This document shows, piece after piece, positions 11,366 through 62,065 of a DNA stretch of 64,000 nucleotides (position 1 is the first letter of the stretch; each line of letters starts with the position of its first letter). The notes beneath the pieces are model-generated. The model worked only from the letters and a program-made list of their open reading frames with translations. It was not told where the DNA came from and searched no databases. The stretch is taken from NCBI GenBank assembly GCA_008632985.1, contig QPGO01000003.1:806001-870000 (forward strand), written 5' to 3'. Both the position numbers and the translations under genes were made by a program. The stretch comes from Psammoneis japonica. Lineage: Eukaryota.

Positions 11366-11483
11366 AGTACTGTAAACCTTTCACTATTGTTTGATGCCAT
11401 AAAGGCATGTTAATTATTATTGACTTGTTTGTTCCGTGTGGATATCGTACCAGTGAATACCAACCGCTAATCGCCTGCTCTCA

Positions 11484-37397: not shown

Positions 37398-38475
37398 ATT
37401 TTCAAAGGAGTGGCAAGAAAGTTCAAGCCACCTCTTTTTGTTTTTTCCATCAACAAATGACATGGCACAGAGGATTTTGCTCTGCAGCCAGAGGGAGGCA
37501 AAGGACACCCAGGTGTGGCGGTTCTTTCCACCAACACAAAAAATGGCCGTTTGGCGATTTGCTCTGACCACACACATGCTCTGTGCCAGGTGTGAACATG
37601 CAAAGAAAAGGCATTGATGGCATCATGCCCCATGTGCAGGGTTGGTCCCACAGACACTTCCAAAACAAGGCAGCAGCAGCAGAGTGGGCATTTTGGCCTG
37701 TGGCACAATGGCAGCACTGTCCTCACAACAGAGCAACATGACCAAGACAGCGCAAGTGCAAAATTCCACCCCTTCTGCAGGAAGAGTCACTGCGCGAGCT
37801 TTCCAGACCCTGCACAAGAGTTCTTGAATGAGCCAGTGCAGAGCCCCCTCCTCCCACCACATGAGGAAAACTTTAGAATCACTTGCCCAGCCCTCCCTTT
37901 GAGGTGCCTTGTCAAGAGCTGGCGGGGTGCCATGGGGTGCGCGAGATTGCTTGTGCCACACACATCTTAAATGCACGCCCATCCTAAAGCATGTGATCAT
38001 GTCTTCACATGCCACGCACAACCACATCCCACTGCGACGCCACAAGGGATTGACGCATGGTGCGACCTGCAGATGGACGATGTTACGGAGTCACCGGAAT
38101 GGTCGAGCAGACCTAAATTCAAAAAATGATTGACCTGCCGACCGACCTGCGTGCCTCTGGCCTGCGCCTGCATGCCGCCCCGTTGACCGTTGACCGTTGA
38201 CCGTTGACGCGACCGTTACCATACAGTAGTTGCAAGCACCGCGCCATCGCCAACATTTCTCTTTGCTATTCGCCACTCTAGGCTATCTACCGGTAATTAA
38301 CTTTTGCCATCATCTTCTGACCACAGAGTACAGAGTTTGTTACAGTGCACAGTGCAAAGGACCCTACCAGCGCATTGTTTATTGCTTCTACACTGTGCAT
38401 CATTATTCATATTATTTTTGTGTGTGGGGATGTTCCCTATTTCAGCGTGACTGTCTCTCCCGTCGAGCAGAAAGA

Positions 38476-39389
38476 ATGAAGCTTTCAGTTTCCTCCTGCC
38501 CACCCCTCTGGATTGCTGTGATTTTTGGATTATTGATTGTCAATCCAGTTATTTGCATTGCATTTACTAAACAAAAAAATTCAAATGTGGAGCACAAAAC
38601 ACCAAGCTTTGTTCATCTGCCAGTCTTGTACGGGCATGTCCACATGGCGAAAACGGCAGGCTCAAGCATTGTTGGAAATTTGTCCATGCATTTCGAGCGA
38701 GTTTGCGGCAACAAGGGATATTCATACGACGCGTACCAAACAAACGAGAGAATGCGAGCGAATCAATTGAAAACAAACAGCACAAACCTGCCATACGAAG
38801 CAGACGACATGGTGAACAGGTTTTTGGAGGCCAGCATAACAGAGGAAAGCTTCCTAGTTCCGCAATGAAGGAAATTGGTTTTGAAGACTGCGACTATGTC
38901 AGCATGGAGGGCCGCTGGACAATTTGGCCGGAGTTGTTTGCAGAGTGGCCTTTTCCAGTCGAACTGCATGTAAGCTGTCGAGATCCACTGGACCACTACC
39001 TCTCCTTTTTGAATTTTAAGGGATACGATTTCCAGTGTAATACAAGGGATAAAAATGGGATACTGCGTCAAGTGGCAGAGCATGATCCACAGACATCCAG
39101 GTTCTCCATGAAATTGTTGGAGGTGAAGAATTTCACTGTCAAATGTTTTGACTTCCGGAGCACGTCAAAGTACATGGGGTACATGGGAGCACGACTTCAA
39201 CGCAAACGAATCGAGACGGATTATGTGTTTCGCTCTACCAACAGACCCCGAGACAAGACCAAGGAATGCTTGTGGGACTATCCCGATTTGCAAGACATGA
39301 TTTCCGATTATCTTGCCCAGCGCAATGACTATTACAAATTTTGCAGTCAGTGTCTCGGATCGGAAGACGACTTGTTCTTTGAACGATAG
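38476..39389 (+). CDS. Type II membrane sulfotransferase-like protein, copy 1 (apparent frameshift in the T-run near 38821)
   Basis: N-terminal TM segment, HMAKTAGSS (5'-PSB-like), CRDPLDHYLS (3'-PB-like); paralog at 58490. Confidence 0.6.
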
Positions 39390-39845
39390 ATAGTGCAGAA
39401 CATTGGTTCTTTGCAATGTATTTTATTTCAGCTCGTGGCATTCCTAGCCTACGGTAGCTAGCGGCTCCGCTCAATTAGCCGCGAAACCAAAATTCTGTTC
39501 ATTCACAACACTTCTCTATTAAATCTCAAATCTCCAATCCCATTGAAGAAGTACAGCTCAACCTGTCCAAAGAGCCAGTAGGTCTCTACAGACAAATGTG
39601 ACGTATTCCAGTGTCCCAACTCGGGTGAAAATGGCTTCAATTGCCTTGATATCGAGCTTCAACTTTTGCTTTTCCGGATGCAGCTCCATCAGAATCTGTC
39701 CCACCTAGTCCTCGTGTCCCCTCCTGATTGTTGCAGAAGACTTTTATTGGAAACCAGCCCGAGTCTGGATCTTCGTGGTCACGAAATCCGTAGTGTCCGT
39801 GAAAGCTACCCACTATTTGCGTCTGTTGATACTGAGTTTGAGGTA

Positions 39846-41234
39846 TCATGGTGTGGACAGCAGGGAACAGGTTGAGATTGAAGCATTCATCCAGGGAATC
39901 ATGTGTGGTTCTGGGTGGGCTGGATCACACGCAAGCAGCCCTGTTTCATTGTCGTGCGATTCGTAACGAGTGTCATGACACCAACTCACGCCGCCGCGAC
40001 TGAGGCTTCCAAAATAAGATGCAAGGTTTCTTGCTGCATGGGATCGTCGAGCTACCCAAGTCTTTCTTGGAACATCTTTTGAGAGCAGTCTACGTCGATT
40101 ATGAGCTTCAACAACAATCTCTGGATAGGTTCGTGGTGCCGTACCACTTAGCTGTGATACAAGCATCGACACGGCCTGGTCATCAGGATGTACTGGATGC
40201 GTCAAGACAAACTGTCGCAGTGATGATAAAACAGGATGCCACAGGAAGCAAAAGTAATTAGAATGCAAAAAGGAACCAGACGGCAACACCATTCTGAAGC
40301 CAAATTGTGAAGGCTTCCAGACGATTCGGTAACGAAGCTGATGATCGGGACAAAATGATTCAAACGGTCTTTCGGCGGGCCACAACGTCGGCTCGTTGGT
40401 CTGGATTTGGCCCCCCTCATGCATCGACGACAGTGAAAGCATCCTTCCTCTTGCTCCAATTTGTGCATTGGCGTTTTGTTTCCACAGCTCGAAACCGATA
40501 AGAACTGTGCGGAACTCTTGGAACGGGCCGTCATCGTCAAAGTACAACACGGCCTTGGTTGTCACGTTCATATCAGGACGGTATCGATTCATAAGGTGGT
40601 TGGTCCAACCAATCTCTGCAGCAAAGATGAATCGAAGCGGTATTGATGCTCTTTGACGTAATAGAAGCCTTTTGCCTGCATCTTGTTGCTCTAGCAATGC
40701 CTTGTCGTTGTTCCAGACGAGAACAATTTCCATAACAAACGACGTTGGCCAAGACTTTTGAATTTCGTCGAGATTCTTATCTAATGAGTCCAGTCGTGCC
40801 GGGTCATATCCCATGACGATAATGGTCACTTGTGTTTCATTGCATTCGGTGGCTGGTGGGACCTGGCAGTGCATTTGATGCGCCGAGTCGTTTAGATCGG
40901 AAATGATCCCAAACTCGCGTAGGTCAGGAATGTTACTGATACCTGAAAACGGATCCGTTTCATTCATAATCAGTTCTGTTGTTGTGTTTCTGAATATAGC
41001 ATGGCAGTATTCTTGTGATTGGATTGCTCGGGTCATCAAAAGGTCGAAACCAAATTCGGTACTAACTATTGGGCTGTCGTGAATTTGAACGGCATGGGGT
41101 AGCCGCGTTTGAAGCTGTTTTGACTGATTTAGCGACCTCATTAGCAACAGCATGATAGCAAATGATAACCAAAAGCGCTTCAAGGAAATACCACGACGGC
41201 GATCCTCATTCTTGTTTGCATGGCGGTGGCTCAT
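39846..41234 (-). CDS. GT64 (exostosin C-terminal/EXTL2-like) glycosyltransferase
   Basis: Type II TM, EIVLVWNN, LMNRY, VLYFDDD, GFELWK, MVLPSGSFLH, PDD. Confidence 0.8.
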   Translation of the reverse strand: MSHRHANKNEDRRRGISLKRFWLSFAIMLLLMRSLNQSKQLQTRLPHAVQIHDSPIVSTEFGFDLLMTRAIQSQEYCHAIFRNTTTELIMNETDPFSGISNIPDLREFGIISDLNDSAHQMHCQVPPATECNETQVTIIVMGYDPARLDSLDKNLDEIQKSWPTSFVMEIVLVWNNDKALLEQQDAGKRLLLRQRASIPLRFIFAAEIGWTNHLMNRYRPDMNVTTKAVLYFDDDGPFQEFRTVLIGFELWKQNANAQIGARGRMLSLSSMHEGGQIQTNEPTLWPAERPFESFCPDHQLRYRIVWKPSQFGFRMVLPSGSFLHSNYFCFLWHPVLSSLRQFVLTHPVHPDDQAVSMLVSQLSGTAPRTYPEIVVEAHNRRRLLSKDVPRKTWVARRSHAARNLASYFGSLSRGGVSWCHDTRYESHDNETGLLACDPAHPEPHMIPWMNASISTCSLLSTP

Positions 41235-42019
41235 TGAAACAAGATCGCAGCCAACCACTTTTGATCTGTAAAGAAAACTATCTTGCACAGGATCGAAGCA
41301 TTTACACATTCTCGTCCTTGCGAAAAAAGAACACGAACAGGATTTGCTATGTATGTGAAAAAGTGAGGAGGTGAGAGTTCTTGCGAGCGTTGAGCGTTGG
41401 AGTGGATATTAATTAATAATGAACATACCGTATATGTTCCATACAATGTTAAATATCAACAAACGAATCACTTTCAACTTTTATTTTAAAATTGTTGGAC
41501 ATTTATTTTTAAAATTAAAATCGAAAAAACTACAGGTACTGCATGTATGTGCATACACGATTTCCCACGCAGCGCCGTTGTGCGCGAGTGCCAGAGTGCT
41601 AACCGAAATCCGATCTCTGTGCCGATGATCAAGAATAAACCCTTTCAGTTTTCAGACAAAGGCCAAACCACAGCATGCCGTACATAAAATATGTAGAATT
41701 CTACGTCAACACTTTACCGTGTTGTAAATCAAAATCACGTGGTGAAAGCACGGTGAAAAGTTTGAGGGGTGGAGAACGTCCACATGAGCATGCAAGTGGT
41801 TCAACATTGTGCAACTGTTGCCCAACACATGCAAAGGTTGTGTTAACTTGAAGCTTTTGCCAGCAGAGATGTTGGATCAAAAATTTTGGACAACCCTTGT
41901 TTCGACACAGTGAAGTCGGTGAATCGCTCGCCAACTGGCAGGCAAATCGCCAGCAATTAACTGGAAATGCTTTGTGAGGCTCCAAATGACTGACAAAGTA
42001 GATTCTTTGGCAAAAGATC

Positions 42020-43250
42020 ATTGTGCATTGTCAAGCATGTCTGTTCAATCAGCTTGCACAGTCAAGATGTGCCCCAGCGTCAAACAGGGCAGAGACAACA
42101 GATTGTCTCTTTCCTTTTCGTGCTTTCACTGTGGTTTCCATTTTTGAACATGGTGAAATGCGCACACAATTTTGTGCCAAGCACTGCAGCATGCTGTGGT
42201 TTTGCTGGCTGAAAGAGTTTGTCGAGTGCACACACCGCGTTGCAAAAGAAGGTGCCAAATGGCTGGATTCTGTCATCGTTGCCAATTGTTGGGCCAACGT
42301 TGATTGTTTTGCTTGTTGTGTTGCAATGAGTTGCTGATCTGGCTGAACAGAGCAGTGGCAAGAAGCTTCCTCCATGTTTTCCCGGCCCACCCACTTGGGA
42401 ATCTCCTGGTTGCTGGTGTGCATCTGACCAGCCACAGCTTGGGAGCTGATCCCCACCGGGTGCCTTGCAAGTCACATTGACCACCTTTGCACAAGCAAAA
42501 AGAAACACAGATTGGCACACAAGAGATGGTTGCACGGGCAAGTTGGGAACAGGCTCCCATGCAAAAGTGCAGCAGCCAGTTCCCCAAATCAGTTTTTGAA
42601 ATCACTGCCAGAGCCTCCTGTTGCCAGCTGCTGTTGACTGCTGGAATGTCCACTTTTGCTGCCACAGGATGACTCACTGCACCTCAAGGAAGATCTGTTG
42701 GCATTGGCACCATGAGTGAGGCCACATGCAGCAGAGAATTTCTTCCCCCTTCAGCGATGTTTTGCAAACTCTCAGATTGGAAAGCCGTGGCTGCAGTCCT
42801 GGGACACCTGCTTTTGTGTGGGTTGAGGTTGATGTGGCAAAGAACTTTGGCCTGTTCCAGCCCCAGGTGATGAGAAATCCATCAAACAAGAGGCCAATTT
42901 TCTGTGCAGTTTGGCACATTTGATCTTCAAGTTTGATCGTTTCGAAAATCGAAAGGTGAGTGTGCACAAAAAAACATGAGTTTTGTGTGCACTCACCCTT
43001 CGATGTGGGAAAAACCTGATTTTGAAGGAGTTCAATGCACTGAATGCAAAATTGTGATGGGAGTCAAACCTGTGCACATCACCTGGAGCTGCAACAGGCC
43101 CGCTGGCACAATTGGTTGCAAAGATGTCACCTTCGTTCCTCTGCACAATCTGGCATGATGGCTCAGACAATGTCCAACACAAAGAGAGATGCCCCACAAC
43201 AAAAGACAACAGCAGCTTGATGTCAACAAAACCCCTCCATCATTTTTCAG
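42020..43250 (-). pseudogene. Eroded copy of the 53060-54600 gene-like sequence, with a ~630-bp deletion and a MITE insertion
   Basis: 42230-42423 aligns with 53210-53407; 42425-43230 aligns with 54035-54590. Confidence 0.7.
42849..43100. mobile_element. Eroded MITE with 24-bp TIRs and an internal hairpin
   Basis: ggcctgttccagccccaggtgatg / catcacctggagctgcaacaggcc; empty site in the paralog at about 54445; hairpin 42950-43003. Confidence 0.8.
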
Positions 43251-44149
43251 AATTTGCTCTCTTTTCTCTTTTGCACTGCTGCTCTGTCAACCAAACTCCT
43301 GAACATGTTTTTTGTGTTCAATGGAGGTGAAAATCAAAAATCACATGAGAAAATTGTTTTTTGCACCACATGCATGAATCTCCTGTTCAACTGGTCCATC
43401 TCTTCAATGACTGTGTCCTCCACAAGCTGGCATGTGCTTTTTTGTTGTCTCTTGTTGCTCTGTGTGTGAAGCAGACATTGTTGCCTCGTCTCAGATGATT
43501 GATGGGTCTGTGCGGGAAATGGTGTTTTTAAGGCATGTGCATGAGTCACGTGCAGCGTCACAATGTCGGACAGACAACGGTCATGCAGTTGTTGCGATTT
43601 GCATGACAAACTGCTGTTCAAAACACCGATGATGACAGTGGCACTTTTCGGATGCTCTTTGAGATTAAAACTTGGCAATGGGCGCTGGCACATTGATCAA
43701 CTGTGCTGTTGTGAACACAAGTGTGCAAAGAAAGCACCCGGACAAAGTCTCAATCATTCAACAATGAATGCACAAAATTGACTGGTGCAAAAACAGAGCT
43801 CAGCATTGGTGTGATGTTTTGCTTTCACATGGAGGTTGCTTGTGGGGACTTTCATGACTGAGCACATTCTCAAACATGACCAAATTAAATGTCCACAATG
43901 CTCAAACATTGAAGATGCACATTGCTGTCATTGCAACAATGCACCTCCATCATGTCAAAGATTTTCAGCAATGAGGCATGCAGTGCACTGCGCACTTCTG
44001 GCACAGTGGAAAATCCTGAAAAATCAAATCGTCCTGCCTGCACCCTTTCTTCTGCAATTGCCTCAAGCAAAAAACAAAGAGTCTGTGTGGTTGACCATTT
44101 GCAATGCCAACTGCGCAGCTGCGCACAATTTTTCTGCTTGATGAGCTTG

Positions 44150-44472
44150 TGCATTTTTGACACAACTTTGACACAACTTTTGGCACAAACCAAACTTGTG
44201 CCACATTTCTGAAAATGCACATCCGGGTGTTTTTTGATTTTCACAAGACTTCCAGTGCAAACTCCACACAAAAAAATAAAACCCGATGTGCATCATTTTG
44301 AAAGTTGTGTCACACATTTTGAAAAATGTGTGCACGGGTTCTTTCGTGTGCAGAAGTCTGGTGCATTCCCACACAACGCAAAAGTTGGGATGTTTTCAAT
44401 TGTGCACATCCAGGTCTTTGCACACCTTTTTTGTCTCACAATTTTTTGTGTCAAATGTTGTGTCTAAAAATG
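44150..44472. mobile_element. Possible eroded foldback element or MITE
   Basis: Imperfect inverted repeats catttttgacacaactttgacacaa / ttgtgtcaaatgttgtgtctaaaaatg. Confidence 0.5.
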
Positions 44473-45299
44473 TCTTTTCTTCAAGGTGGTGTTGGCAATG
44501 AATTTGTCTTGTCTGACAGATTTTGTGCTGGCAGGCACAATTCACATCAATTGTTTTGACACACAGACCCAATCACTTGGGATGCAGACACTGGCCTGCT
44601 CATTCATTCCCCCAAACGTCGGTGCAAGAGGGACCAATTTTAGCAATGACTTTGCCCCCATTTAGCCTCTGTCAAAAAGGGTGCCTTTCACAGCTGTGGG
44701 CTGTTCCGCAGGATCAACTGCATCCTGACACTGCTGTTTGACACTGGCACATGTGACCCTGCGTCCACATCTGATGTGTCCCCACTGCTTGAAACTGGGC
44801 ACTGTTGACTTGCATTTGATTTGGATGTGCTTCAGTGCAAAATTGTTCTTCTAAGAAAATCATCCTTGAACAATGACCACATGCTTTGTGTGTGCAAAAT
44901 GGCAAAATCAAATGCAAAATGCAGCCATTTGCAGTCACTTGGGAGGAAATGGTTCAAGAGAGATGATGTTGAAGTGAAAATCAAAATTGACACACATGGC
45001 ACAAGTGCAATGAAAAACAAGCCTTTTGTGGGGGCACTGACCACCATGCTCATGTGGAACAATCAAAATGTTCAGAAACGAGGACAGAAGCAAACAGCGC
45101 TCAATGTCAATGGGAATCACTTAAAAATGTCGAGTTGGTCACAATTGATTTTTTGCATGACGAAAAATGCAAAATCATGTGGAAATGCACACAATGTCAT
45201 GCAAGAAAGTGATTTGAGCCAATGACTTGGGGGAAGTCAATTGAAATTCATCTGATCACAAGAGCATTTTGATTCACATGTGGGAAAGAGCAACACCCT

Positions 45300-46760
45300 T
45301 GATCAGACAACATTCAATTGATTTCCCGAGAAGTTGACATTCAAGCACAGACAGATGGGCAGACTGACAACAGTTGTTTTTGGTGCTCTTCTACACAATT
45401 TCCATGCAATGACTCTGAGAGCCAAGTGATTCCCTGTTGTGAGCCAATGCCAACCCCACTCGGGCAAAAAATGGAACCACTCAGTGGCTTGCAACTTTCA
45501 CAGCGTGAAACTCACCACTGACCAAATGAAACAGTGTCTCCAAGTGAACGACATGTTGACAGAGGCAAAACAGCATCATTCTCAATGCAGCATGTTGTCA
45601 ACCGCCACTTGTGTGTGGAGCACGGATGCCATCAAATCACCGTCATGGTCATTGGTGGTGATTTTCTCACCCCACAGAAACCACCATAGAGCAGCACCAG
45701 AGAAAAATGTTGGACCATTGAATGGTTTGCTGCACAAGTTGAGCACCAAGAGCTCCTTGGAATTGGCAGAAATGTGCGCACAATTTGGGCCAGAGGGTTA
45801 AATGCCAAATCAAACCAGAAAAATGAGGCTCAAGATGGTGGAAGCATGGAGACTTTTGAGAGTGCAGCAAACCACCAAAATGAAGCATGCATGTTGTCAA
45901 ACAGACTTTGCTGCATTTGACCGATGCAATGTCACCACAGATGTCTTGTCATCTTCAACATTTTTGTGCATTGTCTGTCAAGTTGTTTTTGGCATGCCAT
46001 GAACCACTTGATGGTTCGGGGCAACAATTGCTTGCATTTGTGATTTTGTGCAGTGAACCACTGCATGGTTTGTGGCAGGAGTGGGGCCAACATTGCATGG
46101 GCAGCAGACAGCACAAAGTGCACAGCAGAGTCATTGCACAAGGTGCCACCCCCATCACAACTCTTGCAGCACAAGTTGACACCAAAACTGCTGGCATGCA
46201 TTGTGACACATGAACTCTGGTCAAAACCTGGATGGTGCACACAATGAACTCTTGTTGTGACCAATCTTAGCACCATCACACACTTGGACACTCACTCACA
46301 AAAAAGGTTGACATCGCTTGACTGGGATGGTTGGCAATGCTTGTCAACAAAGCCCTGGCCAATGCTTCAGAGTAGAGCCTGTTCCATTTTGTGTTTGCCA
46401 GCCAATCTGTGGTGCATGGAACACTGAAGGCAAGTCCTGGGTCCATTGTGTTCAATCAAATGTGGTCCTTGATTTGCCATTTGTGACTGATCTGCATGTC
46501 CTTCAAGAAAGGAGGCAAAAGTTGTTTGATCAAAAGTTGATTGAGGCCCCAGCAACCAAAAGCAGCAATTTTTGCTCTCCCCTGTGATTGCCAAGTGGGA
46601 GACCAAGTGCTCAAGTTGACATGCAAACCTGAGAAGCTTTGGTCTTGAGCTCAGGGTCCCTTTCCTGTTCAAACCATCCATCACAATAGAACCTTGACTG
46701 TCCAACTCTCCCACATGCTGTTGAAAGAACATCTGCTCAGCCCATGTGTCAAACCATGCA
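45300..46760 (+). mobile_element. Degenerate Ty3/Gypsy pol remnant (integrase C-terminus; weak RNase H-like piece upstream)
   Basis: TLKASPGSIVF..DLPFVTDL..RRQKL, DCQVGDQVLKLTCKPEKL, QGPFPVQTIHHN.TLTVQL. Confidence 0.65.
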
Positions 46761-47999
46761 GAGAAAAAAAAGGTTGCTTCCTGTGATCTGTGTGGATCAT
46801 TTCAATCAAATGAATCAACCTTGGAGGCAGAGTGACATCTTGTGCTGTGGAGCTGTTGGACAGGGAGCAACAGCCATCATGGATGGCATTTTATCAACTT
46901 TGTTCCCTTCATCATCACAAAAGTGCAGCATCCCTCGGGCTTGCTTCAAGCAGCCTACGACGCTGTCCAGGAAATTTGCTGCCACGTTGACAGATGGGAA
47001 CACTGAAGAGAATTTTAGAACATTGTGCCCATCCGCGGTGGGGGAAGCAAACGTTTCAAAAGCTGAATTTCCGGCATCAAGCTCTTCAAGAATGTAGTCC
47101 TTCAGAAGAAGCAAATCAAAAAAGGTTGGCGAGCACCTGCATGATTGACGGGTCAAGAGATGGCCCCTGCAATGCGGCAAAATTGTTGTTGTTGCGGTTG
47201 TTGGAAATTGTTCAGCAATGCAGTCCTCTCCATCAACGATGCACAGTTGAATTCTTCTTCAGATGCCCCCGATTCCATCAAATGGGATCTAAAGTCCTCC
47301 TTGATTTGATTCCAAGGTGCAGACGAAGACATCTTCATTGTTTGCGGCTTCTGTCAGTGTTGCTTGTCATCTGTCATCCATCGACAGCGCGCCGGCATCG
47401 CAGGGCCCCACTCAAGCAGAGCAGAGTTGTCAAGTGACTGTTTCAACAAGTTTTTGAGGACTCCCACTTTGGCCCAACGAGAAGGCCACAATGCAAGCTG
47501 TGGGTTGTTCTTACCATTGTGCAACCCACCTCATTGGTCTCCACCTCGTCCACAGTCCACAAGTCCCAGGGCGTGCACGCACCTGTGGCGCGGCACCCAC
47601 AGAATGGTGTCGCGCGGGTCGCAGAAACGGGGACCGTGCAAAGTGCAGACGGTGTCAAATTTTGGAAACTTGAATCACATGGTTGATGTGACACAGTCCC
47701 GCCTGCTCTTCAATGTTGGTCTGTGGTTTTAAGTCTTTCATGGTGTGGTTCCGGAAGCATGCCTTCACACTTTTGTTTTTGGTTTTGCAGATGGGATGGA
47801 TGAAAGCTGCGGAGGCAGAGCAGAGCAGATTGAAAAGATCAAGGGCACATTGGATTTTTCGTGAACCTCACAATCCATGGTTCACAGATGTGTGCCACAG
47901 TGACCATTTGCATCCAGTTGGGTTTCAATTGTGCAGCAATGCTTTCTTTGAAAAAAGGAGTCGGTCTTGCACACCATTGGTTTGGTTTTCTTGTTGGTG

Positions 48000-49830
48000 T
48001 GTGTGAATTGCGGCACTGGTTTTCCACCGTGGCCACACAAAATCTTGAACAAAAGCAACCATGTGCCGCTCACACTGAGAACACCTTGTGCAGCATGTTT
48101 GGAGACTTCTGGTTGGTTGACATGAGAACAAATGATGGTCTTGGTTTTGGGATCATGGGACAAATGCTTTTCCCTGACAACCCCAACAGGGCTGCTCTTT
48201 GGCTTGCTTGCAAAGAGCCATTTTGGCTGCACTGGCAAGAGCTGAGGTGCCCAGTGATGCACCAGCAGATTTGGTGGTTGGGTCATGTGACAGACCATGG
48301 CTGCAAAGCCATGGCTTTTGCTGAGTTTGCCCTGAACCAGGGAGGGTTCTGCTTTCTTGGCGGCTTCAAATGTGCCCCTGCATGAACTGCTGCATCTGGT
48401 TGGAATGGCAAAGCAATGATGACTGTGCATGGGCAGGAGTGTGTCCATCTGACTCCATCTTTTGATGAATCTAGACATCAAAATTGTTGATGAAGAAGGC
48501 ACAGCAAGGACTCAACTGCCATGATGCATCCAGGCAGTTTGGGAAGGTGTGGAGATTGTGACAATGTGGTGCAATTGTTGCAATGTTCCTGGATGGCAGA
48601 GCTGATGACAGTGCTGTCAGAGAGGTTGGTTTTCAGATGAAGCTGATTCAACATTTTGTGAGGGTTGTCAATGAAGTTTGGAGCAACAACACAAAGTGCA
48701 TTTTGCAAGATGGGCTGCTGGAAGCTGGCTTGGACAATGAGTGAATGAACGTGCGTGCCCCCAAGTTCTGCAGATGGGGTGGCTTTAGCTGGGTTGGTGA
48801 AATCAGGGGCTTGAAGGTCAAATGGCTCTGAAATGGCACTTGCATCATCAGCACAGATGATGGCTCAGTGTCCAGCGGTGGGTGCCAGGTCGCGCAATGC
48901 AGACACAGTCAGCAGAAAAAGTGAAGAGATCCATGGGGTTGCTGGATGCATCAAGAAACTGGGCATTGTCCACAAGCAAGTGGATGAAAAATGCAACCAA
49001 TGGATTGGATGCAGCATTCTCCAAAGAATGAAGATTGATGTCACCTCACAATTTGGCACACATGATGTGATTGGGGTGACAATCAGCAAAATGGTGCCAT
49101 CCTTGAGATGGGCCAAAGAACACCATCACCATGTCAAGGCAATTCAGGACAATGCTGGTGGTTCTGGCGGCATTGTGGCAGGAAATGATGGCAAGACCGA
49201 TGGGATCTTTGAGTGCTTGATGACTTGCACTCTTCCATTCAGCAACCTTGACTTTAATGAGGCTTGTTTGATTCATGAGCAGAGTGCCCATGACAGAGAA
49301 ATGTGGCACTCCCACAGCAACAACAGGACACTGCACTCGTCAGCAGAACTGCTGTGCCAACGTCCGGCTGTTTCTGAACTCATTTGCGCCACACACAAGA
49401 CTGCCTTTTTCTGTTAAAAGAGTGCAAAGCTTGAGCTGTTCTTCTCAGAGTCCCATGCAGAGAGTTGGGTGCAAATGGGAAACTGGATCTTGGTGTTTGA
49501 CACGCGGCAAATGCCAGCATTGACATCTTCAATCTGCAAGCATGGTGTGAGGCAACTGAATTTGCTGGTTCTGGAGTGAAGGAGATCACAAGCAAAAGAA
49601 GGGGGTCCCAGGATTGCTGGTGGATGTTCTCATCTTGTTTGAGTTTCGTTGGCAGGATGTTGTTTGTGCCTTGTGGGTGCTGGCTAACACAAACCGCAGC
49701 AAAGGCAGGCTGCAAACGTTCTCTAGCGAATCCTCATGAAGTGACCAACGCAAGCCCACCTTGTGACACCGGCATGGTGGGGCAGTGGAGAGCCATTGCA
49801 AGCCCGCTCATTCAAGTGCCCGTGAGAAAC
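48000..49830 (-). mobile_element. Possible degenerate pogo/Fot1-type (DDE_1) transposase
   Basis: FLCHGHSAH (compare DGHSAH) and FLP..TTSIV..LDMV..FGP across frameshifts. Confidence 0.4.
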
Positions 49831-51806: not shown

Positions 51807-53059
51807 CCAAACTAGGAATGCGGGGCAAACATTCATCAAAAAATGAGACTCTAATCTTTGGCTTGCATGCATGGGAATGCCGGTACAAGCCGCGCATTCC
51901 AGTCGTGGGGTGACGCAAGCGAGGAATTGCCTGCTGCCGCGCTTACGTCATCGCCTCATGTGTTGCACTGAAATGTTTTGCATTTCCTTCCATGTCCTTG
52001 CCCTTTTGTTGCACTGGCCAATGTTGATTGTGCCCCAAGCAACATTTTCATGAGGCAGAGCAACAAAAAGGGCAGGCGCCGTTTTGTCAGAGCTGCACAA
52101 TTTCTGTTTTTGACTTGACAATGACGTGTTTGCACGCCCCTGCTGTCCACCCCCCCCTTCTTGTTTCCCTTTGTGTGCTTTCTGTGTTGATTGTGTGCAG
52201 GGTCAATTGGATGCTGCTGATGTCCTCCATCCACAGGACTCCCCCAAATGGGTGTGGCTTCATTCGTGGTGCACATTTTTTGATGCTCATGTGGCTCCCA
52301 CGTGAGCATGCACCAGATCAGCAAATCAACAACCCAGCATGTTCTCACCTGTTTGCGCTGCAGCTCTGTTGACTCTGCCCCACTGTTTGGCACCTTTTGC
52401 CACAACCCACCATGGCAAATTCTCTTGCTCACCAGCACCTTTGCTGCCATGATGGCTCTGCAACAACAAAGTCTGGTTGCCCTTGAAAGAAGGACCCAAG
52501 CTGCAAATGGTCTGTGAACAATGGGAGTCTGCACCTGTCTCAGTTTCTTCTTCTGGTCAAGGCAGGGTTGGAGAAGCTGTTGCTTCCAAGTGCAGCTCCT
52601 CCCTTCATCCATCTGATTTGGACAGCTGGACAGCTGTGGTCTTCTTGGAGGCTTTGTGCTTCTCCCAGAATTGCCTCCTCTGTGTCTCCAGCTGCCAAGG
52701 AGAATTGTGAGATCTGGTGCAAGAAGCTGTGGTGTTTTCTTGCCATGATTGGTGTGATTGTGATTCCATGGTGGTGCTGCCATTGGCACACCCACCAGCT
52801 GGCTGCAGATGCCCCACTGTTGCACAGCCCTCCCTTCAGCATTTTGTTGTTCATCATTGCAAGGCCTTCAACCAGCCATTGAAGTTTTCCTTTGTCAACT
52901 CTGTTCTTTCTGACCCTGTCATTGATGTCAACAGAAATCACATCAGATCTGAAGGCTCCTGCATCAACAACACCAAGGGCTTCACCAACATTCATGCCTC
53001 ATTGGCTGACCTTGGGGAAAGCTTGGGACAAATGGCAACTGCAGTGAAATTGCAGATGC

Positions 53060-54600
53060 ACATTTAATGCTGAATGGTGATCTCAGCCAGCTGATGCACA
53101 CATGCAGCAATCAGCTCAATCAATGCAGTCATGGATTGATTTTGTGTGAGTGCAAGAGAGTGCTGTCCGAGATCCAATCTCCTGCACCAATGATCAAGAA
53201 TCAAGTGCACACACCATGTTGCAAGAAAAGAGGGCGCCAAATGGCTGGAGAGTCTGTTTTTGCTGATTGTTGGGCCCGTGTTGATTGTGTTGCTTGTTTG
53301 CATTGCAATGAGTTGATCTGGCTGAACAGAGCAATGGCTGGGGAGTTGACCTTTCCTCCATGACTTCCCAGCCCACCTGCTTGGAAATCCCCTGGTGGGT
53401 GTGCATCAATTTTGCTGCTTCATCACTTCAATCACTGGCTCCCAGCTCCTCAACAAGCACCTGGTTGATGTGGAGCTGCACAACAGTTGGGTTGTGCAGC
53501 ACTGCTCTCAACGACAACTCCTGATGACACAGAGAACATCTCTTTGCACTCTGAGACATGACCAAGGGAGTGTTGGGGCATGTGTTTGTGTGACCACGAT
53601 GACAGTGGCAGCATCTTTCAGGTTTGTTTTGCAAATGAATGAAAACCAGGCAATGGAAGAAAAAGGGCTGCACAAGGTTGTTTTTTTGCCCCCTCTGGAT
53701 GTGGGCTTTCAGCATTTGCTGGTGGGCACTTTTTCATCGCCCCAATCTAAGTTGGGCAGACCAATTGTTTTGCAACACTGGATTGCTTGTGTGGGGTTTA
53801 AAAATGGCAGCATGGCAGAAGATGTTGCTCAGAATGTTGCCAGAAATGAGTGCCAGCGATGCAAGCCAAGCTTTGCCTGCAGTGTGTTGATGGTCACTGC
53901 ACTGGTCATTTGCTTTGGCCTGACCCTGCCCATGGTTCCCAAGTTCAATTTTTCAAATTGGCCAAAGCCACACTCTGCTCTGCTGGCCTTTTGAGCTCTT
54001 TGCCCCACTCTTTGTCACCCTGTTTGGAGCTGTTTGACCAGCCACAACTTGGGAGCTGATCCCTGCCGGGTGTCTTGCAAGTCATGTTGACCACTGTGGC
54101 ACATGCAAAAAGGAACACAAATTGGCATGCCAGAGATGGTTGCGCCATGGCTGAGTTGAGGACAGGCTCCCATGCAAAGGTGCTGCAGCTGGTTCCCCAA
54201 GTCAATTTTTGTAATTGTTGCTGGAGCCTGTTGCCAGCTGTCAACTGCTGGGATCCACTTTTGCTGCCACAGGCCTCACCACACCTCAAGGAAGATCTGT
54301 CAGTGTTGGCACTGTGAATGAGGCCACACGCAGCAGAGAATTCCTTCCCACCAGCAATGTTTTGCAAACTGTCAGACCAGAAGGCCATGACTGCAGCTCT
54401 GGGACACCCACTTTTGTGTGAGTTGCAGTTGATGCAGCAAAGAACTTTGGCACAATTGGCTGCAAAGATGTCACCTCCATTCCTCTGCACAGAAATCTGG
54501 CATGAATCAGACAACATCCAATGCAATGAGAGGCGCCACACAACAAAAGACAGTTGCAGTTTGATGTCAACAACAAAACGCCCTCCATGATTTTTTAAGA
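53060..54600 (-). pseudogene. Eroded host-gene-like sequence (possibly glycosyltransferase-like)
   Basis: HKSGCPR...TDLP..GE.CG shared with fragments at about 42.7, 57.9 and 60.1 kb. Confidence 0.45.
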
Positions 54601-55999
54601 ATTGGTTTTCTTTTGCAATGCTGCTCTGTTTGTCAACCTTGCTTTCAAAAGCTCCAGTCTACAAGCCACACACAATGTCACTCCTTGGCGCAGCTGTGGC
54701 AGTTGTCACAGCCCTTGCTCTGTGCAAGCATCAAGAAGGAGGCCTGTTGCTCATTGGGACACACCTCCAGATTGCACACGCTGTTCACCAAATGGCTTTG
54801 GTTGTTTGCTTGGAGACTCAATGCTGATGAAGCAACCGTTGCAGTGCAACTCTCAAGTGCTGTCAGACTGTCACAAAAATGACTCAGTTTTGTCTGCAGC
54901 CATTGCTGTGGTGGGCACCAAATGAAGGAAACAAAGGTGTGGGGCAGCCCCCCACACACTGACCTCAATGACAGGGGGCATGCCTGCCTGCCAGTCACCT
55001 TGAGGGGAAAAGTTGGCACACTGTGTCTGCACTTCTTGTGGCAGTCTGCACCTCATGTTGGTGGCACACCAAATCCCCTCCCATGCTGTGGCCATGACAA
55101 GAAGACTTGCCACAATTTTTGCATGATGCAGCAGCAAAGGACCCCCACCAGCAAGGCAACCATGCTGAGCCCATGACTGACTTTACATTGGCAGGAGCTC
55201 AAGACACAACCTTGTGCTGTGCTGCAGAGAGGCATCATCATCTGAGCACAAAATGATGTCCTGCCAACAGCAATGCCAAAAAGATCAGTTGGCACCACTG
55301 CATGGCTGCATTTAGAGGCCCAAAAGCACACAAACTTGCCCCCTCAGCATGGGAGCACCTGTGCAATCAGGACTTAAACAAAAAACAGTCAAAGAGAGGT
55401 TGTGTTTTGTGTTGGTGGCAGAGGTGTGCTTTGCCAAAAAGGAACTTTGGTGCCCAGCAGGAGGTGGCTGCTGCAAGGGGGGCAGAGTGCACATTTCCAC
55501 TCCCGCGCAAGACTCAGATGACATCCAACACAAAAAGAGGCATGGCAAGAAAGATTGCAGCTTGGTGTTGACAAAATCTCCCTGGGGCAACTCAAAGGTG
55601 CTTGGGGGGCGACCTCTCTCACACACCATTGCACATGCGTGCAGCTTTGAACAATCGTCTGAGCATGCGACAACTTTGGCAACTGTGAACATGGAATGAT
55701 GTGTGTTGTGCTGGTCTTTAGAACTTCACAAACATTTTGCACCAAAAATGTTCTTTTGCAATGAACACTTGCTGGCTCTGAGATGACATTCTGTGGCAGC
55801 AGCAGAGCCACGATGCAATGCTGACTTGACAGTCCCCTCCACTTGGCACACCATGGTTCTTGTCAGATTTGGCAGGCTGCCAGTGGGTCTCCTCCATCCA
55901 TTCCTTGTCAGAGAAAAGATTTTGTTGGCACAGCAGACTGGCAGTCTGAGCCTGTGGGATGGACACATTTGCAACATGACACAGCTTTGTGCATGCACT

Positions 56000-56388
56000 G
56001 ACGCGTTCCAGCCCTAGGTGGGACTCCGTGTGACATTGGGCCCGTAGAATTCTACGTGCGAGGTCCGTAGTACGAGAATTTAATTAATGGATATATTTAT
56101 CTTCAACATCAAATAAACGGCCAAGTTTGTGGTACAATTATGCCTCTTACCACTCGACGTTTTTGCAAATGCACCTGCCCTACGCGATTCTTAAGACATT
56201 ATAGAATCGCGCTGTAACAAAAAATGTCAAAAGTTTTTGGACGGATCGCTCAATAAGTGTACCGTAAAATGACACAAAATATAAAAAAATCACGTAGAAT
56301 TCTACGTGCGCGACATACGACGAGATTCAAAAAACTATCGATGTCACAGTTCAGTAGTACGAGGTCCCACCTAGACCTGGAACGCGTC
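56000..56388. mobile_element. Young, un-eroded 389-bp MITE
   Basis: 25-bp TIRs gacgcgttccagccctaggtgggac / gtcccacctagacctggaacgcgtc, 4-bp TSD CACT, subterminal repeats cgtagaattctacgtgcg. Confidence 0.9.
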
Positions 56389-56627
56389 CACTGCTGCAGG
56401 TGCGATGCCACACCTCAAATCTCACTTTTCTTTTTTTCTTGTCTTGAAGCAACGAAATGTCCAACAATGATGTCCGATGTCCTCAAAGCGAAGCAGTCAT
56501 TTTGCTGCGGCCTGCTCATGACCTTGCCGGCACTGCTGCCCATGTCACATGCTGTGCGATGAGCACCGCATTTCACTGCCGTCACTTTTGACAGACAATG
56601 CACTCCATGGTTTGATGGGTGTGAAAG

Positions 56628-57860
56628 ATGCCGGATGATGAGGAAACGCTGGTGCACGAAGCCATCTCTTTAACTTGTCGGCACCATTCTGGTCTTGTGC
56701 TTGAGCATCTTTGACTTTGAACCAGATCTGCAAAGACTTTGTCCAAGAACAGCAAAGAAAGACAATGACAGACTCATCCACAAGATGCAATGGCACGCCA
56801 TGCCAGATGTGTTGGCAAAAGAGATGCGATCGCCTCCTCTCCAAATCATGCAGCAACACCAAAAATGGCATGGAGTTGAGGCTTTAGAAGGAAACCCTTC
56901 CATGGAGATGTGCAAATTTGCTGTTGCTGCATGCTGGTGTCCAGACCGAGCTGGCAATGTGCTCCACAGTCTCTTCAACTCCATTGCGTGGTCCACCATC
57001 ACAAATCGAACTCTTTTGCTTGACTGGGACACAGGAAACCCCAGTGTCAATGACGAATCTTGGTGCAACGATTGAGTTCTTCGACGACAATCATGGACTC
57101 CAATGTGGGGTGAGTGGAAAGAGAAATTGGGCTTGGGCGATCCAGTCTCTGTTGGCATGAATGCACCTGGACGAAGTGCGATGAAGACAAAGAGCACCAA
57201 GTCATCCCATTTCCCATGATCCTGGAGGTTCTGCATGAAAAGCGAATCTGTCAAAGTGGATGGGGTCATCATCCCATGGCTGTTCCAGAACACCAAAGCT
57301 GCGTGCAGGCAATGCCAAAAATCAATCGGGAGATTGCCTCTGGCATGCACTCGGAAGGAGTGGAATTTCTCTTTGGAATGTTTTTCCGTCAATTCTTTGT
57401 GTTGTTCCCCGAGAAAGCACTGTCCACACACGAGGATTCGTTTTTTGTTCATCCTGATTATGACATGTTCACGGTGGCTCTACACAGCCACCACGTTTCT
57501 TCTGTCGATGATGGCAGATGCATTGCTGACAAAAACGTTGTTTGAAGAAGATTCTGCCTGGTGCAAATGAGAGCTCAACCAAGACATGTTGGGCACACAT
57601 TCCATCGGACAGTCCATTGACAATTGAAAAGCTGCACCACTGGTTGGAAGAAAACCGCAACTGCAAAGCCATTTCTCTGCAGCATGACACTGAAACTCCA
57701 GCAATTTCAGATGAACACGGACCGAATGCTGGAGAGGGTTTCTCAGCAGAGCTGGAAATGGGCTTGCACGCAAGAACGGCCGTGATTGGCTCCCCCAATC
57801 GATCTTCCTTTAGACTGTTGCTAGAGCTTGTTGCCTGCCATCAAAGACCAGAGTCCTTGA
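56628..57860 (+). pseudogene. Eroded type II membrane protein gene (fucosyltransferase-like diatom family)
   Basis: KFAVAACWCPDRAGNVLHSLFNSIAWSTITNRTLL, EGVEFLFGMFF, EHGPNAGEGFSAELE; stops and frameshifts. Confidence 0.55.
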
Positions 57861-58489
57861 TGTCATCACAGGACTCGCCAACAGCCAAAGGAAGATCTGT
57901 GGGGGATGATGTGACGCAGCAGAAAAGGCTTCCGCCACCCAAGCTTTGCAAACTCCGCAATGGAAGTCCATCTGGTCATGACTACAGTCCTGGGACACCC
58001 ACTTTTGTGAAGGACACAAATGGTGGTTAACATGAAGAGATCCCGTTTTTTGCAAAGATGTCTGTGGCATCAAGGACTGGCATGTTCCACTCTCACCAGG
58101 ATTTGTCATCATGCAGTTGAGTGGTTCATTGCCTCAGCTCCTGTGCAAAATTGAGCATGATTTTCGGACGACATCCGACACAGGTGAGGAGAGGCTGCTG
58201 TCCCCTGACCAGAGGTTAGCAGTGCCAGCAGCAGAGATGAGAGAGGCCTGAACAGCTTTCCACATGCTCTGAGAGCAGCCCTGGGAGATCATGAGCTCCC
58301 AGCATGAGATCTGGAGCGCGCACCTCAGCCAGCCTTGGGATACACTTGTCAAGGCCGATCTCAGTACGTTTGTGGAAGAAGATGCTAAGCAGGCAACGCG
58401 TTTTGATTTGGGTCTATTCATTTTCATCGTTCACGCTGCTCGCAGTCGCTTGCAGTCACCTTTTCTATCCCATCCTTTGAGAAGAAAGA

Positions 58490-59422
58490 ATGAAGCATTC
58501 AGTTTCCTCCTTCTCACCGCTCTTGATTGCGATAATCTTTGGATTGTTGACAATCAATTCAGTGATTTTAGTTGCGTTTATCGGACAAATAAATTCAACT
58601 ACCGTGGACAAGGCATCGTGTTTTCTTCATTCGCCAGTCTTGTACGGACATGTCCACATGGCGAAAACCGCAGGAACAAGCATTGTTGGAAATTTGTCCA
58701 TGCATTTCGAACGGGTTTTGGCAACAAGGGATATTCGTACGATGCGTACCGCGTACCAAACAAACGAGAGAATGAGAGCAAATCAATTGAAAACAAGCAG
58801 TACATATATGCGATACGAGGCTGCTGACGATATGGTCCACAAGGTGTATAGCGGACGCCACAATAACAGAGGAGATCTTCCTCGTGCCGCAATGCAGGAA
58901 ATTGGGTTCGAAGACTGTGATTATGTCAGTATTGAAGGGACGCTGGACAAGTTGGCCGAAGTTTTTGCAGAGTGGCCTTTTCCAGTCGAATTGCATGTAA
59001 GCTGTCGAGATCCACTAGACCACTACCTCTCCTTTTTGAATTATCAGAGATACGAATTCCAGTGCAATACAAGTGAGAATAATGGGATACTGCGTCAAGT
59101 GGAAGAGCATGATCCATTGACCCATAGATTCTCCATGAAACTGTTGGAGGTGAAGAATTTCACTGTCAAGTGTTTTGACTATCGGAGTACGTCAAAGTAC
59201 ATGACATATATGGGAGAACGACTGCAACGCAGACGAATCGAGACTGATTATGTGTTTCGCTCTTCCAACAGACCCCGAAACAAGTCCAAGGAATGCTTGT
59301 GGGGCTATCCCAATTTGCAAGACATGATTTTTTCAGACTATCTTGTCGAGCGGCATGACTACTTTAAGTTTTGCGGTCATTGTCTCGGATCAATAGACGA
59401 TTTGTTCTTTGACGATGAATAA
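58490..59422 (+). CDS. Sulfotransferase-like protein, copy 2
   Basis: HMAKTAGTS, CRDPLDHYLS; colinear with 38476-39389. Confidence 0.65.
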   Translation: MKHSVSSFSPLLIAIIFGLLTINSVILVAFIGQINSTTVDKASCFLHSPVLYGHVHMAKTAGTSIVGNLSMHFERVLATRDIRTMRTAYQTNERMRANQLKTSSTYMRYEAADDMVHKVYSGRHNNRGDLPRAAMQEIGFEDCDYVSIEGTLDKLAEVFAEWPFPVELHVSCRDPLDHYLSFLNYQRYEFQCNTSENNGILRQVEEHDPLTHRFSMKLLEVKNFTVKCFDYRSTSKYMTYMGERLQRRRIETDYVFRSSNRPRNKSKECLWGYPNLQDMIFSDYLVERHDYFKFCGHCLGSIDDLFFDDE

Positions 59423-59779
59423 TGCAGAATATTGAATATTGGCTCATTTTTTCTCGCACGTTGCATCATCTCCATGCACCTTCTGTTGGTTGTCGTTGTA
59501 TCCGCTCAAGTTGTCGCGAAACCAAAATTCTATTCATTGACAACTTCTGACTCATTGTTACCGCTTTTTCCATTTCTTCTCCATTGCTAATGAAGAAATA
59601 TGGTGTAGGAGTCTAGACTGATTAGACGGGACCCAGCGTCTTCGAACTTGGGTGAAAATGGCGTGCATTGCCTTAGCATTGAGACCCGTAAGGAGAATTG
59701 ATTGGAAACTAGCCCGAGTCTGGATCACCGTGGCGACCAAAAGTTCGTGGTTGAATTTTTCGAACTGGCGGAAGCTATA

Positions 59780-60280
59780 CCTGCCCTACTAGCCCTTTGA
59801 TCCTTTTATCCCACTCCTGATCTTCCTACATGGAACCTGGAAGACTATGATAGCGACTGAAAGTTGTGGTCCTCGCCGGGTATCGCACAAGTCAGGTTGA
59901 CCATCTTTTTGCACTTTCAAAGAACCTCGGATCGCTTGTCGGAGAGGGTTTTATGGCTGAGTTGGAGAATAGGCTCTCATGGAAGATCGACTGTGATTGG
60001 TCCCAGATATAGCCTTCATCACGAGGAATCACCAACAGCCAAAGGAAGAAGATCTGTGGGGGATGTTATGTGGGAGTTTCTTCTCCAAAGCTTTGCAAAC
60101 TCCGCAAAAGAAGACAAAAGGGTTATAGCTATAATCCTGAGGCACCCACTTTTGTGAGGTCGCGGATGGTGGTTCATTACTGGAACATTTCACGAGAAAC
60201 TGCTTATGTTATGGTTGGCTACGTTCCTGTGCGAAAACGAGCGTGACTCTTTCAGATGACATCCGACACAAACAGATGTT
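59780..60280. pseudogene. Un-eroded fragment homologous to about 57750-58190
   Basis: Shared ggagagggttt..gctga, ccaacagccaaaggaaga, cacccacttttgtga and gacatccgacaca. Confidence 0.65.
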
Positions 60281-60348: not shown

Positions 60349-60876
60349 CTACGAGAACGGAATTGCGAGAGCTCCCACTGCCGAACCAAGCAACGCCGTC
60401 CTGTGAAATTGTTTGTTGTTGACATATTCTGGGTGTCGTTGGGTGTCTAATTGGGCTGGATCAAACTCACTGGGACGCCTGGCTTCACCACGGAGCACCA
60501 AAATTTGTTTAGCCACCTTGAGATTCTTGCGACGGGATTTTTCTTCGTCCGTGTATCGACGAAGATACTTTGCAGTGTGATGCAACTCTCTCGTGACTCT
60601 GTTTGTCAGAATCCTGTAGGCTTGTTTCGTCCAAACATGATAATATCCCATTCCATGAGTGTTTGGTCCCCAAACATAATCTTGCTTCAGGGGGGCTTGT
60701 TCCCCATTAGAAGCAGGATGAGGAATAAACGCGGGTGTCTTGCCGTTGATCTTTTTCGAAGGATCCGCCCATGACGTGAGTTCCAACGGATATCGAGCTA
60801 AACTTGAAAGTTTGAGCTCGGGTAACTCTTCGAGGCACGTGTTCATATATTCGACTTGGGCCATTGTAGCAGACAT
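60349..60876 (-). CDS. Hypothetical protein, paralog of 16106-16630
   Basis: Colinear similarity over about 150 aa. Confidence 0.7.
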   Translation of the reverse strand: MSATMAQVEYMNTCLEELPELKLSSLARYPLELTSWADPSKKINGKTPAFIPHPASNGEQAPLKQDYVWGPNTHGMGYYHVWTKQAYRILTNRVTRELHHTAKYLRRYTDEEKSRRKNLKVAKQILVLRGEARRPSEFDPAQLDTQRHPEYVNNKQFHRTALLGSAVGALAIPFS

Positions 60877-61372
60877 GTTGATCTTTGGTGTTTGTGTCGT
60901 AAGGAGATGAAAATTGTGAGCCTTAGTGTGCTATCCACTTCACTTCTTGCGCTTTGTGCTGATGATGGTATGATGGTCAGTCACGAATGAACAAAAACTG
61001 CGCAGGCACGAAGGAAAAACGCGACCAAAATTTGACTACTTCGACCAGTCGAACAAGCATTCAATGAGCAATCGTCAATCGGCTCGAGATGCAATGGTGC
61101 ATCTGGCGAGAACACATTGAAGGAGGGGAAATGATAAAGCTTTTAAAGCTGATGATAGACAGGAAGAAGTCAATCTTTCACATCAATCAACTTATGTACT
61201 CGCAAGTCGCAAGTCGGATGGATGACCGTGTGGACGGCCAGGCAAAACTCCAAAACGCGACCAAAAGATTCGATCGACTCACCCTCTCGATTCTTTGACT
61301 GACGACTGACGCAAGACGCAAGCTGCATAAGAACTCTTTCTGATCAGTGTAGAGAGAAGCTAACAAGAAGTC

Positions 61373-62065
61373 ATGAGTTGGAGCCTCGGAACTGTTTCGT
61401 TTGTCGTAAGAGCTGCAGCAGTTTTTGTGTTGCTGCCAAAGAGCAGTGCTTTTTGCCCACGCTTTGCTAGGAGTAGTCGATTGACTCCGGTAATTTCCAA
61501 GGTGAAAGTATGGCTGGCTGATGCTGCTACTTCTGTAACTGTCGAACGAGACGAGTGTGTGAAAGAACTCATGGAGGCCTGTCGGGAGGCGGGACAGGTG
61601 GGTTCTCTTGCATCACAGGAACAACGCGACAAGGTTGAAAACTTGGCAAAAAAGCTTGTGCCCATGTCGGACCCCGAACCAGCGAGGCAACCACTGACGG
61701 GAATTCATAATTTGGTGTACAGTGCGGCCGAGGGTGGAAGCTCTGGACGACTAGCGGGGCCCATTTATGGAGCAGTGACGCAAGAGTTTGTGAATGATGA
61801 AACTTTTATCAACGGAGTAACACTTGGGCCTCTCTCCGCGTCGTTGCGAGCGAGCCGCAAAGTCATGAACGACAAAGACATAAACGTAAAGTTTCTGGAA
61901 ACCACAGTAAAGTTGTTTGGACAGACTGTTATTCAGAAAGAAATATCGGGTGGAGGCATGTGGAAATACCTTTTCATTGGAGAGGTTCAAGATGAAAATG
62001 GCAATTCCAAATTGGTGCGCGTCATGGAGACACCAAGTCTCTTTGTACTGGAGCAACCGCTGTAA
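61373..62065 (+). CDS. Plastid fibrillin/PAP-like protein
   Basis: SSA-FCP presequence; VENLAKKL...LTGIHNLVYS; beta-rich C-terminal part. Confidence 0.65.
   Translation: MSWSLGTVSFVVRAAAVFVLLPKSSAFCPRFARSSRLTPVISKVKVWLADAATSVTVERDECVKELMEACREAGQVGSLASQEQRDKVENLAKKLVPMSDPEPARQPLTGIHNLVYSAAEGGSSGRLAGPIYGAVTQEFVNDETFINGVTLGPLSASLRASRKVMNDKDINVKFLETTVKLFGQTVIQKEISGGGMWKYLFIGEVQDENGNSKLVRVMETPSLFVLEQPL

Follow-up and report, generated by a model that had tools for sequence, protein, structure and literature searches.

RIP converts C:G to T:A, chiefly by changing CpA into TpA, and strikes both members of a repeated pair above about 80% identity and 400 nt (PMC2621366); it can leak into single-copy neighbouring genes (PMC3105345). 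The process acts between mating and meiosis and depends on an enzyme of the RID/DNMT4 type. In Bigelowiella natans, hypermutation at TpA has been measured as de novo mutations in viral inserts, at a rate raised about 1000-fold and in some lines only (Mettrop et al., bioRxiv 10.64898/2026.01.13.699255). The NCLDV insert described there is single-copy and silent, with a Rho TpA of 0.45, and 124 clusters are reported; the paper proposes an adenosine deaminase without showing one, and its supplements name TpA-poor genes, including some with domains of host type, which may bear on the newness of the host-gene aspect of the present locus. In diatoms, the known mark of silent repeats is CG methylation: DNMT5 methylates the transposons of Phaeodactylum tricornutum, and diatoms also possess DNMT4 (PMC9998398). 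The viral inserts of B. natans, an unrelated alga, are the one published case of a region-targeted nuclear A:T to G:C mutator that was found, and the literature searched (for the most part outside subscription journals) yielded, among the matches listed, no report of a TpA process in diatoms.

The window, a 64,000-nt stretch of the genome of the diatom Psammoneis japonica (contig QPGO01000003.1, positions 806,001–870,000), carries a TA-loss signature that is near saturation. Within it, normal DNA (TA o/e 0.51–0.58, CG o/e 0.92–0.94) alternates with sharply bounded eroded blocks (TA o/e 0.04–0.10, with CA and TG raised) that make up about half of the sequence (33,258 of the 63,612 nt classed). 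CG loss accompanies TA loss in every eroded block. The blocks hold three of four copies of one gene (those at 42, 54 and 57 kb), and the fourth copy, at 60.1 kb, lies in normal DNA (Table 1).

TpA hypermutation in B. natans is the closest known case, and its signature matches: TpA changes to TpG or CpA are confined to regions, the resulting clusters are TpA-poor and CpA+TpG-rich, and repetition is unnecessary. The target differs, in that a host gene, along with mobile DNA, is struck here instead of viral DNA. Bigelowiella is a rhizarian with viral DNA, whereas in this diatom TA o/e falls to 0.04–0.09, CG is lost jointly and a preference for 5′-TAY is apparent. Furthermore, all hypermutable changes reported for Bigelowiella are at TpA, whereas between the old copies compared here non-TA transitions are also raised (29 of the 187 non-TA A/T bases).

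The likeness to RIP extends to dense, context-specific transitions in repeat-rich blocks, gene inactivation and reach into neighbouring host genes. The chemistry is the opposite, however, TA being turned into CA or TG so that TpA is destroyed, and one of two sister copies is untouched. Because these two defining features of RIP are missing, the process is not RIP, even though its outcome resembles RIP leakage; the parallel drawn in the first-pass annotation (‘as RIP does’) survives as a loose analogy only. CG methylation by DNMT5 would explain the CG loss but cannot yield the TA to CA/TG change.

The whole is best explained, with a probability of about 0.7, by local duplication followed by TpA-directed erosion of three copies in silenced domains. 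A fucosyltransferase-like host gene would have given rise, by local duplication, to at least four copies. Three of them would have ended up in domains that are repeat-rich and silenced, and there a TpA-directed process would turn A:T into G:C (TA into TG, or into CA if the opposite strand is struck), with a slower CpG decay running alongside. The 54-kb and 42-kb copies would have eroded separately after splitting, and the 57-kb copy, downstream of the repeat block, would have been overtaken when its reading frame was still almost whole. The fragment at 60.1 kb, between converging live genes, would have undergone ordinary mutational decay and escaped the process.

Table 1. Features of the window that bear on the erosion of the four gene copies (positions within the window).
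Feature	Coordinates	Strand	Description
42-kb copy	42425..42851	+	eroded, heavily decayed 3′ relic; motif codons CGT/TGC
Dispersed repeat	51954..53050		starts the eroded block that contains the 54-kb and 57-kb copies
54-kb copy	53950..54630	+	eroded, heavily decayed 3′ relic; CAT (His, 54386) and TGC (Cys, 54392)
MITE-like element	56000..56388		young, 30-nt terminal inverted repeats, TA still present
TA-poor block	56389..58306		contains the 57-kb gene; ends ~170 nt ahead of the next open reading frame
57-kb copy	56674..58030	+	near-full-length dead host gene, fucosyltransferase-like (predicted)
Intact diatom gene	58481..59422	+	function unknown, un-eroded; 54 homologues, including Thalassiosira profunda and Corethron
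60.1-kb copy	59745..60260	+	broken, un-eroded 3′ relic; TAT Tyr codons at 60124 and 60130 retained
Intact open reading frame	60349..60930	-	convergent with the 60.1-kb relic; has a 71% duplicate at 16123–16567

Identity and condition of the four copies

The exact strings quoted in the first-pass annotation are present at 60121, 57974, 54383 and 42784, and alignments confirm that the fragments containing them are homologous to each other (71–81% DNA identity). The identity is 73.5% over 170 nt between 57863–58028 and 60016–60174 (E 2e-21), 80.9% over 430 nt between 42425–42851 and 54035–54451, and 71% between 54328–54418 and 57914–58009. The string at 57 kb closes a reading frame for which a HMMER search detected 165 relatives at E≤0.001, where a protein search by word matching, run with the motif region, had returned nothing among 100 candidates. 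At least 36 of the relatives (36 of the 150 among the matches listed) share the motif G-Y-D/N-Y-G-P-G-T-P-T-F, and one homologue cluster includes P. tricornutum XP_002178428.1.

The structural model of one homologue, P0061 (pLDDT 84, with a long N-terminal helix), resembles in Foldseek the GT-B fucosyltransferases FUT8, plant FUT1, NodZ and POFUT1/2 (E 6e-7 to 3e-4, TM 0.25–0.40), sharing their fold at a sequence identity of only 11–14%. None of 10 family homologues has a Pfam match over the cut-off, there was no sequence match in the PDB, and Pfam applied to 32 frames of the window named none of the four relics. The homologues and the fold of the P0061 model together identify the fragments as copies of a predicted fucosyltransferase-like host gene, with fucose transfer from GDP-fucose as the putative activity of the family. 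The view of the first-pass annotation that these are host-gene-like duplicates and not TEs is thus borne out by host homologues outside this genome. A transposable element as the source of the fragments was considered and rejected: there is no Pfam hit, no copies were found beyond the window, and host homologues exist instead.

Elsewhere in the genome, own-genome DNA and protein searches detected no further copies of the fragments. Four single-protein searches recovered only the 57-kb relic and three intact, distant paralogues, and a back-translated motif pattern run over the genome gave 4 matches, 3 of them unrelated. Across the 597-contig assembly, these searches, the counts from which are lower bounds, turned up no intact subfamily member. 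The three paralogues have no motif match, and their profile matches stop at positions 383–388. In a quick tree (80 of 124 rows, 136 columns), they are placed opposite all 31 motif-bearing rows, and the 57-kb piece falls with those rows (SH-aLRT 88, weak). One intact paralogue, on contig C57 near 206–209 kb, is located within ~1.5 kb of a TA-poor block; the frame beside it we take, from its motifs, to be tyrosine-recombinase-like.

The 57-kb copy is nearly complete, covering positions 21–405 of the 414 in a profile built from 36 motif-bearing homologues (56818–58015, in three frames). It contains an in-frame TGA at 57073, a terminal TAA at 58028 and apparent frameshifts near 57162 and 57530. 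In a contig of sequencing run X1, a single additional base is present at each of 57162 and 57530, and these offsets are exactly the ones that bring the three frames together. Both frameshifts are probably errors of the assembly, in which case the TGA at 57073 is the sole remaining break. TA has nearly vanished from this gene (o/e 0.09, with CG o/e 0.50), and so has tyrosine: there are 2 Tyr in 400 codons, compared with 7–16 in the six intact frames counted. With nearly all TA lost and hardly an indel acquired, the gene has eroded much faster than by ordinary decay. The TA-poor block around it holds 9 TA in 1918 nt (TA o/e 0.07, CG o/e 0.46).

The other three copies are short, decayed 3′ pieces, the upstream parts of which received no family assignment in a frameshift-aware profile scan (scores 11–19, with controls up to 23). 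The 60.1-kb copy differs from the 57-kb copy by frameshifts and one deletion, and shows no base or indel difference from run X1 among the best-supported matches listed. It retains 22 TA in 516 nt (TA o/e 0.61, CG o/e 0.71), compared with 0–9 TA per 516 nt in eroded windows (n=61) and 11–37 in normal windows (n=57), classes that were themselves drawn by composition; A:T to G:C change is thus confined to bounded regions, as in Bigelowiella. The 54-kb copy has 1 TA in 571 nt (CG o/e 0.08) and the 42-kb copy 0 TA in 427 nt (CG o/e 0.14). The latter, which lies within a TA-poor block at 41781–49717, resumes at 43104–43287 beyond an insertion; its motif is marginal in the profile scan (24), and its assignment comes from DNA homology.

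Direction and TpA context of the change

In well-aligned columns, the 54-kb copy shows CA (4) or TG (4) at all eight TA of the 60.1-kb copy and has no TA opposite anything; transitions affect 7 of 15 TA bases compared with 8 of 82 other A/T (Fisher p 0.0017). Over the whole alignment, 19 of the 22 TA in the 60.1-kb copy have a partner column, 15 of these being CA/TG in the 54-kb copy, 4 something else and none retained. The 57-kb copy (3/9 vs 14/100, p 0.15) and the 42-kb copy (3/6 vs 8/46, p 0.10) depart from the 60.1-kb copy in the same direction, alone not significantly. The contrast drawn in the first-pass annotation, TA in the un-eroded copy against CA/TG in the eroded ones, accordingly stands for the 60.1-kb copy, but the 57-kb copy retains one motif TA (57983). 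Likewise, the 60.1-kb copy can serve as the un-eroded reference in having kept its TA, but it is a broken fragment and not an intact ancestor.

The direction of change is beyond the reach of the four copies alone and required homologues from outside. The first motif tyrosine codon and the second, TAT/TAT in the 60.1-kb copy, are CAT/TAC at 57 kb, CAT/TGC at 54 kb and CGT/TGC at 42 kb, and the corresponding positions are the family-Tyr columns 393 and 395. The comparison with orthologues that had been suggested at the outset turns out in favour of the claim: tyrosine is found in 35 of 36 homologues at both columns and, this residue being near-universal, TA is ancestral at the codons at 60124 and 60130. 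The same claim does not extend to the TA at 60126 and 60132, which straddle codon borders and are for that reason not polarised by the family; at 60126, the Asp codon of the eroded copies encodes the residue most often found in the family (Asp 18, Asn 13 and Ser 2 of 36).

The 57-kb gene repeats this pattern along its length. At its 10 family-Tyr columns (those with Tyr in at least half of the family), it has His at 4, Cys at 3, Tyr at 1 and other residues at 2, whereas the three intact paralogues have His or Cys at 0 of 22 such columns (7/10 vs 0/22, p 3.6e-5). In the reverse check, family His is kept at 8 of 9 columns and Cys at 6 of 6, none having become Tyr. The process therefore does reach gene copies, as the first-pass annotation maintained, since conserved tyrosine codons of a host gene were converted to His and Cys. 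Open frames that are poor in Tyr and rich in His and Cys should be treated with caution in such genomes, as relics.

A young MITE fixes the direction a second time, independently of the protein outgroup. The element, which is of very high copy number, splits one eroded block and is flanked by a 4-nt target duplication, CACT; at least 40 copies exist at 97–100% identity (the best 40 of 1494 candidates), 37 of these 40 with the target duplication. When changes are polarised by the majority base among these best-scoring 40 of 1494 candidates, transitions are found at 21 of 60 TA positions and at 10 of 162 other A/T (p 3e-7), compared with 2 of 44 positions for the reverse change and 3 of 56 at CG. 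A:T to G:C change is thus concentrated at TpA, as in Bigelowiella, and its presence in so young an element indicates that the process is recent and quicker than CG decay. One MITE copy, on contig C180, is identical.

Block-wise erosion and the escape of a dead duplicate

In the unrooted tree of the four copies, those at 60.1 and 57 kb group together (12 vs 4 vs 1 sites; transversions 5 vs 0 vs 0). Between the 42-kb and 54-kb copies, CA and TG are swapped at 15 of 93 sites, an excess over the control swaps (1/45 and 1/98) which indicates that these two copies eroded separately. The sister copies, 2.1 kb apart, had opposite fates: the 57-kb copy is nearly whole and eroded, and the 60.1-kb copy is more broken and spared. 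Because the spared copy is the more broken sister, neither duplication nor deadness is sufficient for erosion. This pair is a natural experiment that separates duplicate status from location within silenced DNA and opens the targeting rule to a direct test.

Erosion follows blocks. The dispersed repeat with which the block containing the 54-kb and 57-kb copies begins has 70–87% matches on 6 other contigs, and the six loci profiled are all TA-poor at the match. The 57-kb gene is at the end of this repeat-initiated block, which halts at 58306, just short of the next gene. The distinguishing feature of the 60.1-kb relic is its position between two converging intact frames. Normal DNA at 1624–13225, 39846–41408 and 61364–62065 contains ordinary host genes, with matches to U-box/FYVE, CBS, V-ATPase H, GT64 and PAP/fibrillin. 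A Copia-type element at 30570–37397 (RVT_2 match) has 245-nt LTRs that are 90% identical, with CA/TG swaps at 5 of 52 sites, and TA loss in its interior goes far beyond CG loss.

Read cover adds a weak hint that the 60.1-kb relic is in transcribed DNA. Contigs of run X2 cover 58355–60120, most of the relic included, and one low-depth contig skips an 85-nt GT..AG stretch (59187–59271) within a frame that stays open across it, possibly a minor splice form; the run is recorded as ‘DNA?’, and its reading as RNA comes from this one spliced contig. Over 52000–58345, X2 has zero contigs, an absence of cover that is no evidence of silence, and run X3 gives cover at 60445–60702 only.

A homology-triggered, RIP-like process with adenine chemistry, in which repeats are recognised by pairing, would have struck the 57-kb gene via a since-lost partner or by leakage, the 60.1-kb copy being too short or too diverged to pair. 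Such a process would account for the repeats in the eroded blocks (the Copia element, the dispersed repeat and the relic copies themselves) and for a multi-copy MITE acquiring TA changes, and leakage of RIP into single-copy genes has a precedent (PMC3105345). Yet the 60.1-kb sister of the 57-kb gene is untouched, and so is a live duplicate pair: the gene at 58481..59422 has an 82% DNA duplicate at 38465–39509 which is likewise un-eroded, the shared alignment of 1073 nt retaining TA at 20/37 and 20/43, although this pair exceeds the limits of ~80% and 400 nt for RIP (PMC2621366). Moreover, the depth of run X1 over the 57-kb gene is flat at 64.4, from one contig, with no second copy of the gene at ≥85% found in that run, and the target in Bigelowiella is single-copy (bioRxiv 10.64898/2026.01.13.699255). 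This alternative is accordingly judged unlikely. Live duplicates may remain un-eroded through selection, and the 60.1-kb piece (~500 nt) could fall below a length threshold. In the live pair (38465–39509 vs 58479–59544), 12 TA of the 58-kb copy are opposite CA/TG in the 38-kb copy, and 4 sites show the reverse; the 38-kb duplicate, 0.5 kb from an eroded block, may have been lightly touched.

What draws TpA-directed erosion seems to be the silenced state of a region and not its duplication in itself, and we infer that chromatin state (silent, CG-methylated), not sequence pairing, would be the address. The MITE copies give no support for an effect of location, as there is no visible dependence of rate on flank: among the 40 scored copies, the 28 with both flanks TA-poor have 54 TA changes, the 11 with mixed flanks 19 and the single copy with normal flanks on both sides 3, only this 1 of 40 being normal-flanked. 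It is a tentative and rather doubtful extension that a chromatin-guided, adenine-directed DNA-editing defence spread from the repeat block and itself caused the loss of the only full-length copy. If true, TpA hypermutation would drive host gene loss, beyond scarring DNA that is already dead, and if the last full copy was removed by the process, diatom gene content would be shaped by it.

Chemistry of the change

The density of surviving TA in eroded relative to normal DNA depends on context, being 0.01 for RTAY, 0.07 for RTAR, 0.10 for YTAY and 0.31 for YTAR. This pattern fits editing of the A in 5′-TAY on either strand; inside the MITE, the TAY preference is not significant (15/33 vs 6/27, p 0.10). 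Given the rest of the explanation, adenine deamination in DNA by a TadA/ADAT-type enzyme would be the chemistry at slightly better than even odds.

The main chemical rival to deamination is error-prone synthesis, which keeps the same address: gap filling or mis-repair near methylated or damaged bases, with neither a deaminase nor a defence involved. Polymerase eta has a WA bias, with a 5′ base order of T > A > C, G. The A to G changes in the MITE follow the same order (T 21/60, A 6/71, C 2/44, G 2/47), and the loss of CG alongside TA in all blocks also speaks for such synthesis. However, AA is not depleted in the eroded blocks (log2 ratio +0.19), the MITE rate at AA is close to those at CA and GA, and TA loss exceeds CG loss, as the 57-kb gene illustrates. 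This rival is therefore considered distinctly improbable.

Contigs of run X1, which may be the source sample itself and the library type of which is off record, depart from the assembly in eroded DNA at 3 places over 4026 nt and at 2 over 2303 nt. Outside the repeats, the five base differences in eroded DNA (at 54143, 55819, 55848, 57162 and 57495) are without exception exchanges CG<->CA/TG and run both ways, possibly because CpG decay is heterozygous or because methylated CG is miscalled. An artefact of sequencing or assembly (modified bases miscalled in long reads), or TA as the derived state in the 60.1-kb copy, would be compatible with these differences, with the one-base indels in the 57-kb gene that are probably errors, and with X1 perhaps being the source sample, but is largely refuted by the near-identity of X1 over eroded DNA and by the outgroup tyrosines and the star pattern of the MITE, which settle the direction, and retains hardly any probability.

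A deaminase-family search of the genome gave 9 hits, and the 7 loci examined have no unusual feature. Presumably of the dCMP deaminase, TadA/ADAT and RibD types, judging from their motifs, the hits look like the ordinary housekeeping set, a point against the explanation favoured here. Two of the loci, on contigs C41 and C317, have identical scores and spacing and are probably a haplotype duplicate in the assembly.
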